From: Escherichia phage 132
Length of the DNA: 64,000 nt
Direction: 5' to 3' (one strand)
Sequence record: MZ417521
This document shows positions 2,419 through 51,113 of the stretch, in pieces. Numbering within the stretch: position 1 is the stretch's first letter; the number at the start of each line of letters is the position of its first letter. The notes beneath the pieces were generated by a model. The model ran no database searches, had not been told where the DNA came from, and worked only from the letters and a program-made list of their open reading frames with translations. The translations under genes were made by a program, and so were the position numbers.

Positions 2419-2448
2419 ATTATACCACATCCTTGTGGTAAAGTAAAC
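2419..2448 (-). promoter_or_regulatory. T4-type early promoter (-35 GTTTAC, 18-nt spacer, -10 TATAAT) reading toward rIIA.1/rIIA
   Basis: plus-strand gtaaac at 2443-2448 and attata at 2419-2424, i.e. GTTTAC-N18-TATAAT on minus strand. Confidence 0.6.
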
Positions 2449-44681: not shown

Positions 44682-44985
44682 TTTCTTCTCTCTCAAATCG
44701 GTGTTTGCAATGACGACATTTATATTCAAGCTCTGGTTTACGCCAGTTAATCAATTGGACCTGTTCAGTACCACATTTTGGGCAGTTCGGAACATTCTTA
44801 GAAGCCCTTTCGCGGCGTTCAACCATAACCATAATGGCATCCCAAGCAGGAGGTTTAAAGTCTAGATCGTCACAGCCATGAATCTTTCCACGCATTTCTA
44901 AATCGTCTTCTTCACCAGCCATAATAATTTTAATTAGACTGGAATTACTTGAAGCTGCAATATCTTCTAATAAGCGCTTTTTCAT
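44668..44985 (-). CDS. small zinc-ribbon protein, 105 aa
   Basis: ATG preceded by GAGG; C-terminal CPKCG...CRHCKH. Confidence 0.45.
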
Positions 44986-45911
44986 TTCAATACCTCAATA
45001 GCATTACGTAAACCATTTGCTTTGGCGGTTAAAGCCTTAAGAACTTTAGTATGCTCTTCAATCTGTTTTTCAACTTCAATTAAGCGTGTATTAAGATATT
45101 CGCGTTCTTCACTCAGGTTATCAATCTTTTCTACTTTAGGTTCTTTTACAACTGGCTTATATGTATTAGGATTCTTCAGTTTAATTAGAATGCGTGAACT
45201 GTATAACATTGAACCATTATCTTCGGTTTCGTCATACATTTCTACTACGTCCATAATTTTTAACATCATGCGGAGTTTATAAGACAACGAACGAATAGTT
45301 TTGTTGTGCTTATTAATTTCTCTAGCGTTCATGGTGCCGAGATTACGTGAGTAATAATAAGGAACCTGGATATTAATTAATACTGATGAACCACCTGGCT
45401 TGTGTGTTACTTCATCAGCAATAACCCAGTCCTTAACATGAACTGTATTTGTACGGTCATCGCCCGCAGTAAATAGTTTACGAGCATGCTTAAAAAGCAT
45501 ATTCACTTGGTCATTGAATTGACAAGCGAATTTATCAGCAAATTTAGTTTCAGGAATGGTAGATAACCAATCAGCCAAATGGGTCTTTTTAACATCGTTA
45601 ACAATAGTAAATTCAACCAAATCGGTTATAGATGTCGCAGATTTAATGAAGCTCGGCTTCATAAAGTTTTTAATGTTATCGCGAGCTACGGTAGAAGATA
45701 ACATACGAGAACGTTTAAACCATTCAAGCAAATTGCCTAACGAATGAGAATAAGCGTTTTGAGTATCTTTACAGATATGATTTTCCTGGCCAACATATTG
45801 AAGGAAATCACGAAGAATATTATTGATTACTGCTCTGTGCCCGATTTGATAATTACGGTGTTTAGTAATAAGACTGTCAAAATAATCAATATAATGTTTA
45901 CGAGTTTTCAT
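44982..45911 (-). CDS. tandem paralog family member 1 (309 aa) with C-terminal coiled coil
   Basis: ATG ORF; shares core blocks and a C-terminal heptad-repeat helix with the next three genes. Confidence 0.6.
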   Translation of the reverse strand: MKTRKHYIDYFDSLITKHRNYQIGHRAVINNILRDFLQYVGQENHICKDTQNAYSHSLGNLLEWFKRSRMLSSTVARDNIKNFMKPSFIKSATSITDLVEFTIVNDVKKTHLADWLSTIPETKFADKFACQFNDQVNMLFKHARKLFTAGDDRTNTVHVKDWVIADEVTHKPGGSSVLINIQVPYYYSRNLGTMNAREINKHNKTIRSLSYKLRMMLKIMDVVEMYDETEDNGSMLYSSRILIKLKNPNTYKPVVKEPKVEKIDNLSEEREYLNTRLIEVEKQIEEHTKVLKALTAKANGLRNAIEVLK

Positions 45912-45963
45912 GTTCTTCTCACTTAGTTAATGATTTATACTCCGAGCCATCCTTGGCTTTAAA

Positions 45964-46965
45964 TTACTTAATTAACTGTAAAGCTTGTTCAAGACGATCC
46001 AGGCGATTAACAGATTCTTCCCAAATCCTTTTAGCCTGTTCATATTCTTTCTGCGCTTTATTAGAAATTTCTAGAGCTTCTTTATAAGCTTTTTCTAATG
46101 CAATAACTTCTGGACGAATTTCTACCGATTCAGGTGAATCATCAAGATTATCCATTAATTCCTCAAGGGTAGTTTCTTCTTTAGGAGTATTCACAATTTC
46201 TTCGCATTTTTGTTGGTAAATTTCTTTATCAGTTAGTGAATAAGCACACTTTACTTCACGAAGACTAACTACAATTTTGTATCCTTCCCAACCGCACACA
46301 TTCTTAAAAGGATAAGTATGAATATTTTCTACTGTTTCCATACAAAGTAGTGCAGTCTCTAATTGACGAGTTATATCACTAGCAATTGAGAAAAATTTAT
46401 TAATGTTCTTTTGATTAGCTTCTGGTGTAAAAAATCCATAATTCACAAAAATAGCTGCTTTATTTTTATCAAGTTCATATTCTTTTATGATAATCATATC
46501 AGAAGCCCAAGGATGAATTTGACGATAATCGCCATAGCATAATTTAGAAGCTGATTTTAGAATTTGCTTTTTGAAAAGTCTGAAATTACTAATCCAACGA
46601 CGAGTAAAAATATTCTCAGGGTCTTCTTTAATATTAAGATGATAAGAATTAACATCACCGAACCAATTATATCCTACTACATCTTTAGTTCGTTTAATTT
46701 CTTTCCCAAATTTACCAAGAATATCTTGATTAACTAAATATGAAAGAAGACGAGAACCTTTAAATGTTTCCTTAATGTCATCTTTATATTCGCGACTAGA
46801 AATTTTATGAACTTCATGGATAAATTTGCTGGAAGAAACAATGCTTACATCAATATTATTGAGCCATTGATTGATAATGGAAATCACGCTATTCTGACTA
46901 GACACAGGTTTAACTTTATCATCAATAACGCTGTTGAATGATTTGATATATTCATTACGAGTCAT
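45964..46965 (-). CDS. tandem paralog family member 2 (333 aa)
   Basis: ATG preceded by GAGGAG; block FTRRWISNFRLFKKQILKSASKL aligns with RIEWRFIALFRRQLKQILSTASRL of member 3. Confidence 0.6.
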   Translation of the reverse strand: MTRNEYIKSFNSVIDDKVKPVSSQNSVISIINQWLNNIDVSIVSSSKFIHEVHKISSREYKDDIKETFKGSRLLSYLVNQDILGKFGKEIKRTKDVVGYNWFGDVNSYHLNIKEDPENIFTRRWISNFRLFKKQILKSASKLCYGDYRQIHPWASDMIIIKEYELDKNKAAIFVNYGFFTPEANQKNINKFFSIASDITRQLETALLCMETVENIHTYPFKNVCGWEGYKIVVSLREVKCAYSLTDKEIYQQKCEEIVNTPKEETTLEELMDNLDDSPESVEIRPEVIALEKAYKEALEISNKAQKEYEQAKRIWEESVNRLDRLEQALQLIK

Positions 46966-46993
46966 ATTAATCTCCTCAGTAGAAAGTAAGAAT

Positions 46994-47023
46994 ATTATAC
47001 CACATCCCTGTGGTAAAGTAAAC
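46994..47023 (-). promoter_or_regulatory. T4-type early promoter; near-identical copy of the promoter at 2419-2448
   Basis: gtaaac 47018-47023, attata 46994-46999; about 32 bp (attataccacatccctgtggtaaagtaaacta) differ by one base from 2419-2450. Confidence 0.55.
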
Positions 47024-48051
47024 TAGTTCAGTGCATTTAGTGCATTGTTCAGTTTAGAACGTTGCTTCGTGAGATTTTTGACTTTTTCTTGAGCTTTTTC
47101 TAGTGCCTTTTCAACTTCTAACATTTCATTAGTTGCTTTAACGAGTTCATCATCTACTGCTTTAAGAGACTTCTCAATCGCATCTGCATGCCATTTTTCA
47201 ACAGGTTTAAGACTCGGATTTTCAATAGGAAGAAAATTCACTTTATTGAATTTCCATGCATCCTTATTACCTGAACTATACATCCAAAATTTAGGATCGT
47301 TTGATGAGTAATTGGATAAATTTAAATTTAAGTTATCTTGCACTTCTTGCTTTTTCTCTTGCGTGACTTCGTCCTTTCTCAAAAAATCGTATTTAAATGA
47401 AACGATCATATCAAGTTCATACGTTGTTGTATGTTCCCAATTTCGCTCAAAATGAGGTAAAATCTTAGACTGAACAGCGGCAACAACATCCATATACTTA
47501 AATGCTTCTGTTAACTGCGATTTAAGGCATTCGCAAATTGAAAGAGAATTTTTTGTATTAGGTTTAAAGCTAATTCGTGCAGTTCTATTATTTTCTTTTA
47601 ATGGTCTTACTTCCATCTGAAGAGTATAACCATCAAATTTCAGATTCTTTAAGTTAATATCAGAACCTTTTAATCGACTCGCAGTTGATAAAATTTGCTT
47701 TAATTGTCTACGGAACAGAGCAATAAATCTCCATTCAATACGATAATGATTTGGATTGAAAAATCCAGATGATAAATCGACCTTACTTTGACCAACGCCT
47801 TGAACAAATAGAGGATTTTTATAATCAATAGTTTTACAGAAATCGGTAAGCTGCTCACGAGCCGTCATTTGTGTAATATACCCTGCTTCGCTAAAATTAC
47901 GCACCCATTCGCTGCTGTTCAGATGCTTAAAGGCATGAATGGAACAATTAACTTTATCAGGGTCTAAATTATTTTGGCACAAAAATGTCATAACGTCACG
48001 AGTATAGCTGGCATTACGAACCATATCTTCAATTTGAGAACGAGTTTTCAT
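47023..48051 (-). CDS. tandem paralog family member 3 (342 aa)
   Basis: ATG ORF; conserved core plus C-terminal coiled coil. Confidence 0.6.
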   Translation of the reverse strand: MKTRSQIEDMVRNASYTRDVMTFLCQNNLDPDKVNCSIHAFKHLNSSEWVRNFSEAGYITQMTAREQLTDFCKTIDYKNPLFVQGVGQSKVDLSSGFFNPNHYRIEWRFIALFRRQLKQILSTASRLKGSDINLKNLKFDGYTLQMEVRPLKENNRTARISFKPNTKNSLSICECLKSQLTEAFKYMDVVAAVQSKILPHFERNWEHTTTYELDMIVSFKYDFLRKDEVTQEKKQEVQDNLNLNLSNYSSNDPKFWMYSSGNKDAWKFNKVNFLPIENPSLKPVEKWHADAIEKSLKAVDDELVKATNEMLEVEKALEKAQEKVKNLTKQRSKLNNALNALN

Positions 48052-48059
48052 GGTGTTCC

Positions 48060-48950
48060 TTAAGATTTAAGTAAATCAACAATTTTAATCAGCTTTTCAC
48101 GCTCAGATTTAGCTTTACTACTCAATCCAGATAGTCTGAAAATTTCATCGTCATATTGTTGAATAGAAATATTCAGCTCTTCAATCTGCTTATTAAAATA
48201 ATCAATTTGTTCAGAATGTTTTTCGTTACTACGAACTGGTACAGGTTTTGTAGGCAATTTGGTTGAACTGGATTCATCCGGGCGATAAATTAAAATACAA
48301 CTTGAACCAATAGGGCATTTTGCACCAGATGAATATTCTAATGTTCCAGCTTCTTTTAAAACTTCAAAAGCTAAACAGAGATGATGTCCCATATTAACAT
48401 AATCTGTAGAGCGAGCTCTGATGTAATAATCATCTCTGCGAATACTAAATTTAAAGCATTTAAGGTCTTCTGTATTATTGGTCTTAAAAATCATTTGTTT
48501 ATCTAGACCTTTAGCTAATCGAGCGCCTAATGCTAATAATCGTCGTTGATTTTCCCACAAATCCGCAATCATTTGATCGAATGATAATTTCGGCATTAGT
48601 CGACCATAAAGGTCATATCCTTTATTATAATTACGAAGAATTTCACTCGCATTAATACGAGACAACGCTCCAATTTTATTAAGGGCTTTCATAATGCGAT
48701 TAGATAAACTCATTCCAGACCCATTTGTTCGCTGTAGATGTTTTTCTAATCCAAACCCAATATCAACTTTAAATTTATCTAAAATTTCGGCATGAACATC
48801 TCTGTCAATAACATTCAAATCCAAAGTTGGGTTAAATTTATGAAAAAATTTATCTGGCTCTCCACGACGAAATACAGTCCATTCATTCATCATTTTTTTA
48901 TTAACTAAAGATTTAATTACTGCATTGACATTATTAATTACTACTGACAT
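48060..48950 (-). CDS. tandem paralog family member 4 (about 296 aa)
   Basis: track start is GTG; ATG at 48948-48950 preceded by GAGGA; block NQRRLLALGARLAKGL aligns with the family core. Confidence 0.55.
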   Translation of the reverse strand: MSVVINNVNAVIKSLVNKKMMNEWTVFRRGEPDKFFHKFNPTLDLNVIDRDVHAEILDKFKVDIGFGLEKHLQRTNGSGMSLSNRIMKALNKIGALSRINASEILRNYNKGYDLYGRLMPKLSFDQMIADLWENQRRLLALGARLAKGLDKQMIFKTNNTEDLKCFKFSIRRDDYYIRARSTDYVNMGHHLCLAFEVLKEAGTLEYSSGAKCPIGSSCILIYRPDESSSTKLPTKPVPVRSNEKHSEQIDYFNKQIEELNISIQQYDDEIFRLSGLSSKAKSEREKLIKIVDLLKS

Positions 48951-48957
48951 ATTTTCC

Positions 48958-49365
48958 TCACTCAATTTCAATTTTACTAAATACACAGAATATGATTGAA
49001 CAGACTACATAAGCGCCACACACGGATTGAACTAATACCATCCCAAAGAACCAAACAATATTATCAAACAATGTCTGTTTTACGTCGAAAGGACGTAAAC
49101 TTACAGTAATATTATCACCTTTTTCTATTGAAGAATACATCTCTGGGGAAATATATTCACTAAATCTATAACCATCTTTGAGTTCATATACGGCAATAAA
49201 CGATAAACTAGACCCTTTTCCTTGTGTTCCTGTAATGGTATTAACTACAGTAACATCATAATCTTTATAATGCATATAATCATTAATTGCGTAATAACCA
49301 TATGCAATTACTACACATAAACAACATATCAATAAATTCAATCTTTTAATTATCAACTGTTTCAT
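48958..49365 (-). CDS. membrane protein, 135 aa
   Basis: ATG ORF; N- and C-terminal hydrophobic helices. Confidence 0.5.
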   Translation of the reverse strand: MKQLIIKRLNLLICCLCVVIAYGYYAINDYMHYKDYDVTVVNTITGTQGKGSSLSFIAVYELKDGYRFSEYISPEMYSSIEKGDNITVSLRPFDVKQTLFDNIVWFFGMVLVQSVCGAYVVCSIIFCVFSKIEIE

Positions 49366-49964: not shown

Positions 49965-50006
49965 GTTGATAGTTGTATAGTACCACAGAGGAACAGTCTT
50001 GTAAAC
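49965..50006 (-). promoter_or_regulatory. PeS-like early promoter cassette
   Basis: gtaaac 50001-50006, atagta 49977-49982; conserved 20-bp block 49965-49984; flanked by 7-bp inverted repeat gttcctc/gaggaac. Confidence 0.55.
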
Positions 50007-50393: not shown

Positions 50394-51113
50394 TTAGGAT
50401 TCTTCTAAATGTCTTTTCTGAAAAGTTGATACCATACTACGATACGGTTCATTTGGATACCCGTGTTTTATAGCTTCCTTTGTAAATTTTCTCCATCCAT
50501 ATTTAGTTTCTTTCCAAAGCTCGAATAATTCATCTTCATATTGCCATATAGTTAAATGAGAACGCTTTGCAGCTTTAATTCCATTAATATGCTTTTCTTT
50601 TACTACAGGATTGCTTAGTTTCTTTTTAATAATATTACTAACTTTTCTAACAAAAACTGGGTCCTTATATCGTTGCGAAGTTTTTATTGAAGTGTTTAAT
50701 TTAGCTTCCGGCGTGGATGTGACCTCTTTCATCTTTTTCTTCATATGCTGTATATGATTAGGATTTTTCCATAAATTTATAGAATGCTTTTTGCATTTTA
50801 TCCTAGTTTCATCTGCAACCTTTCCTCCTTCACCCCCGTATGACAGGTTAACACAGTTTTTTCCATATTTCAATTTACCTGCCATGATATATAATATTTC
50901 AGCTTGTACCATTTTATCATAATTATCAAAAACTTCTAAAACCGTTTTTGATAATATGTGGTCATTTGACACTTTTACACGTTCTATATAATTTCCACTA
51001 CCAACATACGAATCATTGATGTTATTAGTTATATGTCGACCATAATAGTATTTCTTAATACCTGTCTTTAAATTTAATATTTCAGTTTTATAGATAGTAA
51101 AATATTTTTTCAT
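50394..51113 (-). CDS. free-standing GIY-YIG-like homing endonuclease, 239 aa
   Basis: N-terminal FTIYKTEI...YYYGRH (GIY-YIG-like with YYG); basic C-terminal half; start ATG overlaps the stop of the AAA+ gene. Confidence 0.6.
   Translation of the reverse strand: MKKYFTIYKTEILNLKTGIKKYYYGRHITNNINDSYVGSGNYIERVKVSNDHILSKTVLEVFDNYDKMVQAEILYIMAGKLKYGKNCVNLSYGGEGGKVADETRIKCKKHSINLWKNPNHIQHMKKKMKEVTSTPEAKLNTSIKTSQRYKDPVFVRKVSNIIKKKLSNPVVKEKHINGIKAAKRSHLTIWQYEDELFELWKETKYGWRKFTKEAIKHGYPNEPYRSMVSTFQKRHLEES

Follow-up and report, generated by a model that had tools for sequence, protein, structure and literature searches.

Four tandem genes of a T4-like phage, nrdC.3 to nrdC.6, as diverged copies of one protein family that includes the Dsr1-evasion protein NrdC.5

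A stretch of 64,000 nucleotides from Escherichia phage 132 (sequence record MZ417521; hereafter, the window) carries four consecutive genes on its minus strand, here called genes A–D, that encode proteins of 296–342 amino acids (aa) and are orthologs of nrdC.3, nrdC.4, nrdC.5, and nrdC.6 of phage T4. The window belongs to a T4-like phage (Tequatrovirus), and the 4-kb stretch with the four genes matches 656 phage records, nearly all of them Tequatrovirus, at 80–97% nucleotide identity. Gene order agrees with that of the T4 reference (AF158101), which runs nrdC.2, nrdC.3, nrdC.4, nrdC.5, nrdC.6, nrdC.7. An earlier first-pass annotation of this DNA had placed four same-strand genes of this size here, and their positions hold exactly. 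Gene A (nrdC.3; 44982–45911, minus strand) is an open reading frame (ORF) of 309 aa that matches phrog_1435 (E = 1.8e-117). Gene B (nrdC.4; 45964–46965, minus strand) is an ORF of 333 aa that matches the same family (E = 2.5e-164), with 88.9% identity to T4 NrdC.4 and relatives that carry PF26897, an entry of newer Pfam. Gene C (nrdC.5; 47023–48051, minus strand; phrog_2351) is an ORF of 342 aa with a full-length match to DUF7235 (PF23882; E = 2.4e-124, 415 bits compared to a cut-off of 30), 92.5% identity to T4 NrdC.5, and the same position between nrdC.4 and nrdC.6 as in T4. Gene D (nrdC.6; 48060–48950, minus strand) encodes 296 aa from an ATG that is preceded by a GAGG ribosome-binding site (308 aa if read from a GTG at 48986), matches phrog_2257 (E = 6.4e-151), and has relatives that carry PF26899.

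Existing catalogues split the four genes, with A and B in phrog_1435/PF26897, C in PF23882/phrog_2351, and D in phrog_2257/PF26899. Scans of the four proteins against Pfam, NCBIfam, and PADLOC returned DUF7235 for C alone, the remainder being sub-threshold coiled-coil noise; as A, B, and D had no PF23882 hit in the Pfam scan, they are regarded as relatives of DUF7235 and not as members. All three are straightforward members of the families of T4 NrdC.3 and NrdC.4 (phrog_1435, PF26897) and T4 NrdC.6 (phrog_2257, PF26899), which are described as ‘conserved hypothetical’. Many GenBank records label nrdC.3–nrdC.7 as ‘thioredoxin’, an identity that was rejected for nrdC.3–nrdC.6 as none of them had a thioredoxin-family hit in Pfam or NCBIfam. 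The term appears to derive from the nrdC.x naming, and the widespread annotation of nrdC.3–nrdC.6 as thioredoxin is wrong.

Judged by profile alignments and predicted structures, the four genes are homologous, old, and strongly diverged copies of one protein family, with D the most divergent of them at the sequence level. Pairwise blastp matched A to B over 226 aa (E = 1.7e-7), B to C weakly (E = 1e-3), and A to C within the coiled coil alone, and it found nothing significant for D against A, B, or C. This pattern, along with the three separate families held by Pfam and PHROGs, is what would be expected if the resemblance were merely compositional, the product of an AT-rich genome, lysine-rich helices, and generic coiled coils in otherwise unrelated genes. 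Profile comparisons, for which the family alignments combined database homologs, loci from other genera, and hits from a library of representative sequences, point the other way. With hhalign, A and B were linked at a probability of 98% (E = 1.7e-14), and A+B were linked to C at 89–94% (E = 1e-7 to 2e-6) with the C-terminal helix cut off, in an alignment spanning both the FTRRWISNFRLFKKQILKSASKL / RIEWRFIALFRRQLKQILSTASRL block and the METV/MDVV segment. When the nrdC.5-type profile was broadened, its match to A+B reached 97.5% (E = 5e-12), and A, B, and C share an N-terminal M-(K)-T-R motif.

The link to D emerged only once more distant nrdC.5-like and nrdC.4-like representatives had joined the profile, as single-family profiles reached a probability of <25%. 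A 28-sequence A/B/C profile matched the D family at 94.8% (E = 5e-8) over 194 columns of the N-terminal and core region, coil not included, compared to E = 0.11 for a reversed D alignment and E of at least 0.11 for 30 column-shuffled D alignments (top score, 19; real alignment, 62). When the 47 window ORFs of at least 150 aa were compared to the A/B/C profile, A, B, and C scored, followed by D only, and the 43 others did not. As the profile matches persist without the coil, the shuffled and reversed controls and the 43 other window proteins fail, and secondary-structure elements and structure searches agree (see below), a compositional origin is very improbable and is already contradicted by the present data. 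The paralogy proposed in the first-pass annotation, including that of the fourth gene, is thus borne out by the profile alignments, the negative controls, and the secondary-structure register, and the names nrdC.3–nrdC.6 apply to proteins whose folds are probably related.

The conserved blocks quoted in the first-pass annotation fared unevenly. Its three quoted blocks do align to each other in the profile alignments, and the MDVV segments that it had ascribed to the set are present in A and C, with METV in B and no equivalent letters in D. A conserved basic helix-pair block lies at 47671–47742 in C (RIEWRFIALFRRQLKQILSTASRL), with equivalents at 45474–45542 in A, 46540–46608 in B, and 48504–48551 in D, all on the minus strand; NQRRLLALGARLAKGL of D aligns with the block of the other three, in agreement with the first-pass annotation. 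AlphaFold2 models were built for C (mean predicted local distance difference test [pLDDT], 69.6) and D (76.0), each from its own alignment and of moderate confidence, and the block corresponds to helices 105–115 and 117–128 in the C model and 124–133 and 135–145 in the D model. The order of elements is alike in both models, running from a helical N-domain through two consecutive helices, a hairpin, a helix, and a second hairpin to a low-confidence linker (C, 224–284; D, 227–243) and a terminal helix. From these models and, by extension, for A and B, all four proteins would share one build consisting of an N-domain, a basic helix pair, a hairpin-helix-hairpin sheet domain, a disordered linker, and a C-terminal amphipathic helix of 42–57 residues. 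When the hhalign alignment, made from sequence only, was laid over the DSSP strings of the C and D models, 76–78% of positions had the same state, compared to 25–56% with one string shifted. In relation to T4 NrdC.5, gene C is an ortholog, and A, B, and D are remote homologs that would be alike in architecture. Residues 30–86 of gene A, in the helical N-domain, show a weak likeness, below threshold, to the SAM-like domain at the N-terminus of tyrosine recombinases (NCBIfam E = 0.0017; Pfam E = 0.07).

Foldseek searches of predicted viral structures matched the C model to NrdC.6 of phage JS10 (E = 2.7e-4). For the D model, they found a 308-aa protein of Yersinia phage fPS-65 (E = 2.4e-3), which is taken as nrdC.3-type from its length alone. 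Matches common to the C and D models came from phages Mineola, fHe-Yen9-01, and PM2, and further matches came from Acinetobacter, Aeromonas, Erwinia, and Serratia phages, presumably T4-like by their names, including two Acj61 proteins with adjacent accession numbers. The cross-family matches had a probability of 1.0 but template modeling (TM) scores of 0.3–0.5, for models of moderate pLDDT. No Protein Data Bank structure resembled the C or D model in the structure search, so that the fold, which the first-pass annotation could not assign from sequence, can be described but not assigned.

The heptad-periodic C-terminal helix of C is encoded at 47026–47196, with equivalents at 44985–45110 in A, 45967–46113 in B, and 48063–48227 in D (all minus strand), and the models contain a single terminal helix at residues 286–341 of C and 242–295 of D (54–56 residues). 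Family-averaged hydrophobicity peaks at a period of 3.4–3.5 residues in all four, a peak reached by 0–3 of 500 shuffles, which is the value of a coiled coil and not the 3.6 of an ordinary amphipathic helix. In single sequences, the 28-residue stretch with the best heptad score lies at the very end of A, B, and C (z about 3), and the score for the terminus of D is not significant. All members, the very distant ones included, end in L-x-x-A/I-L/I/V-x-x-L/I/F-K, and the four window proteins have a final L/I-K/N; a loose version of this terminal motif, defined after the fact, occurs in just these four of 150 window ORFs. In families A, B, and C, conservation is highest over the last 30 residues, which in D also rank among the best conserved; the sheet domain (about residues 150–225) is the least conserved part of B and D. 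The terminal heptad helix had been foreseen in the first-pass annotation at 30–40 residues; the periodicity is found in all four proteins, but at 42–57 residues the helix is longer than that.

The same helix is affected in the T4 reference, where a 1-nt deletion (gagctg-atatt) in nrdC.6 (L007, AF158101.6, 2967–3794) shortens the annotated protein to 275 aa, with loss of the C-terminal helix. The intact 296-aa nrdC.6 is encoded by the window (48060–48950) and by another T4 record (OL964735), and the deletion is either a sequencing error in the reference or a mutation of the laboratory strain. Separately, an 803-bp metagenome contig (P0236; L011) encodes a 173-aa protein in which an unrelated N-terminus, with no match in the phage collection, precedes a near-identical NrdC.5 C-terminal helix. 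This is either a shuffled coiled-coil tail module or an assembly chimera, and the contig was set aside as evidence on account of its short metagenomic origin, its unmatched N-terminal part, and the possible chimerism.

In a search of 1.84 billion proteins, the A/B/C profile matched just 19 representative clusters. The named matches by sequence, tblastn, and Foldseek were T4-like phages or phage-sized bacterial records, so that the family appears confined to T4-like phages; a scan of viral contigs with C recovered near-identical tequatroviruses only and no added diversity. Mosigvirus, Gaprivervirus, and Dhakavirus each carry three members beside nrdC.2. Two of these are of the nrdC.5 and nrdC.6 types, and the third is of either the nrdC.3 or the nrdC.4 type, the two never occurring together. 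The A/B pair of Tequatrovirus may therefore represent an old duplication with differential loss, or the capture of an alternative allele. NrdC.5 belongs to a family of four in T4 and its relatives, with further relatives, at the level of structure, in T4-like phages of Acinetobacter, Aeromonas, Erwinia, Klebsiella, Serratia, and Yersinia. The nrdC.3–nrdC.6 genes and the phenotype of NrdC.5 were known before; what appears to be undescribed is the four-way paralogy, the common architecture, and the occurrence of the family across T4-like phages, and no link of the phrog_1435 and phrog_2257 families to each other or to NrdC.5 was recorded in the literature and resources searched.

Between genera, the four proteins drop to 20–51% identity (with one nrdC.3 match at 78%), compared to 83–89% for gp49 and NrdC. 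Among eight tequatroviruses, the ratio of nonsynonymous to synonymous substitution rates (dN/dS) was 0.09–0.28 for the four genes, compared to 0.01–0.03 for gp49, nrdC, and nrdC.8. As all values are <1, the genes are functional and under purifying selection, though faster evolving. For nrdC.3, public phages hold three allelic types, at about 95%, 75%, and 62% identity. Gene A itself is 78% identical to a Mosigvirus copy (SA79RD; L010) and 62.6% identical to that of T4, with flanking genes 82–100% identical to T4, and the closer match to the Mosigvirus type indicates exchange between lineages. The adjacent nrdC.2 is also unusually divergent from T4 (82%; dS = 0.75), and the divergence of nrdC.3 and nrdC.2 suggests a recombination patch acquired from another lineage.

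Copy number varies at the locus, with natural isolates carrying two to four copies of the family and high-identity copies of D, C, and B present in 501, 495, and 464 records of the phage collection, respectively. Phage SYGD1 lacks nrdC.4 and nrdC.5, such that D is followed directly by A, with a junction exactly at the ATGAAAACTCGT common to the starts of C and A. At this junction (L012, 5930–5942; window, 45900–45911 and 48040–48051), the nrdC.6/nrdC.5 spacer is kept and nrdC.3 coding sequence continues after ATGAAAACTCGT; SYGD1 appears to have lost both genes when nrdC.5 and nrdC.3 recombined at their first 12 bases, which are identical. Phage CJY920 lacks gene B, and a 167-kb contig (P0056) carries a fusion of C (146–274) to A (129–309), a C/A chimera. 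Read from these three sequences, phages can do without the genes, and rearrangement is driven by the paralogy itself.

The genes are predicted to be expressed early. A T4-type early promoter (GTTTAC-N14-GTGGTATAAT; 46994–47023, minus strand), whose activity is predicted from its match to the consensus, lies directly upstream of gene B and would start a transcription unit with B and A. The early consensus (GTTTAC-N14-GTGGTAnnAT) has 18 matches in the window, all on the minus strand, among which the promoter upstream of B has a 29/30 copy at 2419–2448 (minus strand), upstream of a short ORF that precedes rIIA. This agrees with the claim in the first-pass annotation that one of the genes has its own early promoter, nearly an exact copy of the one close to rIIA. 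The two copies have 13 of 14 spacer bases alike, compared to 2–8 of 14 for the 16 other early-type promoters, and the similarity around them is limited to about 33 nt. A second T4-type early promoter (49977–50006, minus strand), an exact match to the consensus upstream of nrdC.8, probably drives nrdC.8, nrdC.7, D, and C, as gathered from gene order and close spacing. The spacer of the duplicated promoter contains an inverted repeat (CCACAgGGaTGTGG; 46998–47015 and 2424–2441, minus strand), where a terminator scan scored a hairpin. A GC-rich hairpin (CCGAGCCATCCTTGG) occurs at 45942–45956 in the nrdC.4/nrdC.3 spacer, followed on the minus strand by TATAAATC, a 7/8 match to the T4 late-promoter motif TATAAATA.

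A function has been reported for one member of the family. An evolved T4 clone with compensatory deletions did not plate on ECOR17 unless the host dsr1 was deleted (Srikant, Guegler, Laub, eLife 2022, PMC9391042), and plasmid-borne T4 nrdC.5 restored the plating of this clone, which had lost nrdC.5, on MG1655 carrying dsr1 (PMC9391042). Dsr1 is a SIR2 enzyme that degrades nicotinamide adenine dinucleotide (NAD), with a C-terminal tetratricopeptide repeat (TPR) sensor that is homologous to that of Avs7 and triggered by the phage major capsid protein (2026 preprint, PMC12803255). The arms-race role that the first-pass annotation had raised for these genes is therefore shown for one of them, as T4 NrdC.5, 92.5% identical to gene C, counters Dsr1 (PMC9391042); the anti-Dsr1 activity reported is that of the T4 protein. 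So far as the literature searched shows, NrdC.5 is the only phage protein reported to defeat Dsr1, and it was absent from the searched supplements to EVADES, a 2025 catalogue of 268 anti-defense proteins. The same searches found no functional work on nrdC.3, nrdC.4, nrdC.6, or their Pfam families, and no later work on NrdC.5. Since NrdC.5 disarms Dsr1 and nrdC.3, nrdC.4, and nrdC.6 belong to the same family, the other three are good anti-immunity candidates; their homology, their early promoters, the speed at which they diverge, and the gain and loss of copies in nature suggest that A, B, and D would also act against host defenses. By this reasoning, three ‘hypothetical proteins’ of T4 become testable anti-defense candidates in the best-studied phage.

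The interpretation favored here, at a probability of roughly 0.6, is that nrdC.3–nrdC.6 are diverged copies of one family encoding dispensable early accessory proteins that neutralize host immunity proteins by binding them. Each paralog would appear within minutes of infection, ahead of the late capsid trigger, and would act as an oligomer that binds a host immune sensor or serves as its decoy, binding its cognate immune protein stoichiometrically and blocking either trigger recognition or effector activation. In the domain map, the variable sheet domain is likely the specificity element and the conserved coiled coil likely the oligomerization element, such that the fast-evolving sheet domain and N-domain would decide which immune protein is bound and the C-terminal coiled coil would form a dimer or trimer that adds avidity; alternatively, the C-terminal helix could itself dock into the target. 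Duplication, allele capture, and loss at the locus would then leave lineages with two to four specificities.

Several points weigh against this interpretation. An experimental phenotype exists for only one of the four genes, and nothing ties A, B, or D to a defense system. Direct binding of Dsr1 by NrdC.5 is an analogy with DSAD1 and DSR2 and not a result. Gene-wide positive selection was not found among the eight tequatroviruses (dN/dS < 0.3), and the conservation of the coiled coil above all other parts could equally mean a shared housekeeping partner. The structural side carries its own caution, given the moderate confidence of the models (pLDDT, 70 and 76) and the low between-family TM-scores (0.3–0.5).

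In the main rival, the genes are true paralogs but only NrdC.5 is an anti-defense protein, the other three having unrelated early functions such as host takeover or the regulation of a phage or host protein through the shared coiled coil. The missing phenotypes for A, B, and D in the literature searched, the low dN/dS, the conserved coiled coil and helix pair (which fit a common conserved partner), and the sub-threshold likeness of the gene A N-terminus to a tyrosine recombinase domain are all in keeping with it. However, A, B, and D resemble the proven member in architecture, expression class, rapid divergence, and copy-number variation, and about 7% of the tequatrovirus records with D have no B, which would not be expected of a core takeover function; the rival is considered possible but doubtful. 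It is quite unlikely that NrdC.5-type proteins instead act indirectly, sequestering or masking the capsid protein trigger or altering NAD metabolism without binding an immune protein. Such a route would be compatible with the undetermined mechanism of Dsr1 evasion (PMC9391042) and with other phages that beat NAD-depleting defenses metabolically through NARP pathways, but the genes are early and the capsid trigger is late, and nrdC.5 supplied alone on a plasmid was enough to rescue a phage that lacked it (PMC9391042). The favored reading of immune-protein binding could also be extended, in a form that is unlikely as it stands, to modular inhibitors across T4-like phages that target the TPR capsid-sensing domain of Dsr1, Avs7, and thousands of other defense proteins with different effectors, with a fold that has no solved relative. 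In this extension, the C-terminal helix would be a generic plug of the sensor groove, or a hetero-oligomerization handle uniting the paralogs in a multi-specific complex, and the variable domain would fit each paralog to a different variant of the sensor.

DSAD1 of an SPbeta-like phage inhibits the SIR2-type NADase defense DSR2 by direct binding, and it offers a possible working analogy for a phage protein directed against a defense of this type. No similarity in sequence or fold was detected between the four proteins and DSAD1. Among the other early anti-defense genes of T4, tifA, dmd, and adfA encode much smaller proteins than nrdC.3–nrdC.6, and neither these nor ipIII surfaced as homologs in searches with the four proteins. 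Like nrdC.3–nrdC.6, the products of tifA, dmd, adfA, and ipIII are early or injected, non-essential, strain-specific, and lost in compensatory deletions (PMC9391042), but nrdC.3–nrdC.6 are 300-aa paralogs in tandem, each with a coiled-coil tail.

Outside of the four genes, a 239-aa ORF upstream of nrdC.9 (50394–51113, minus strand) is missing at that site in the T4 reference. It had no Pfam hit, and its N-terminus (KYYYGRH...SYVGSG) resembles, by eye, a GIY-YIG homing-endonuclease motif. Phage SYGD1 carries an ORF of equal size at the same position.

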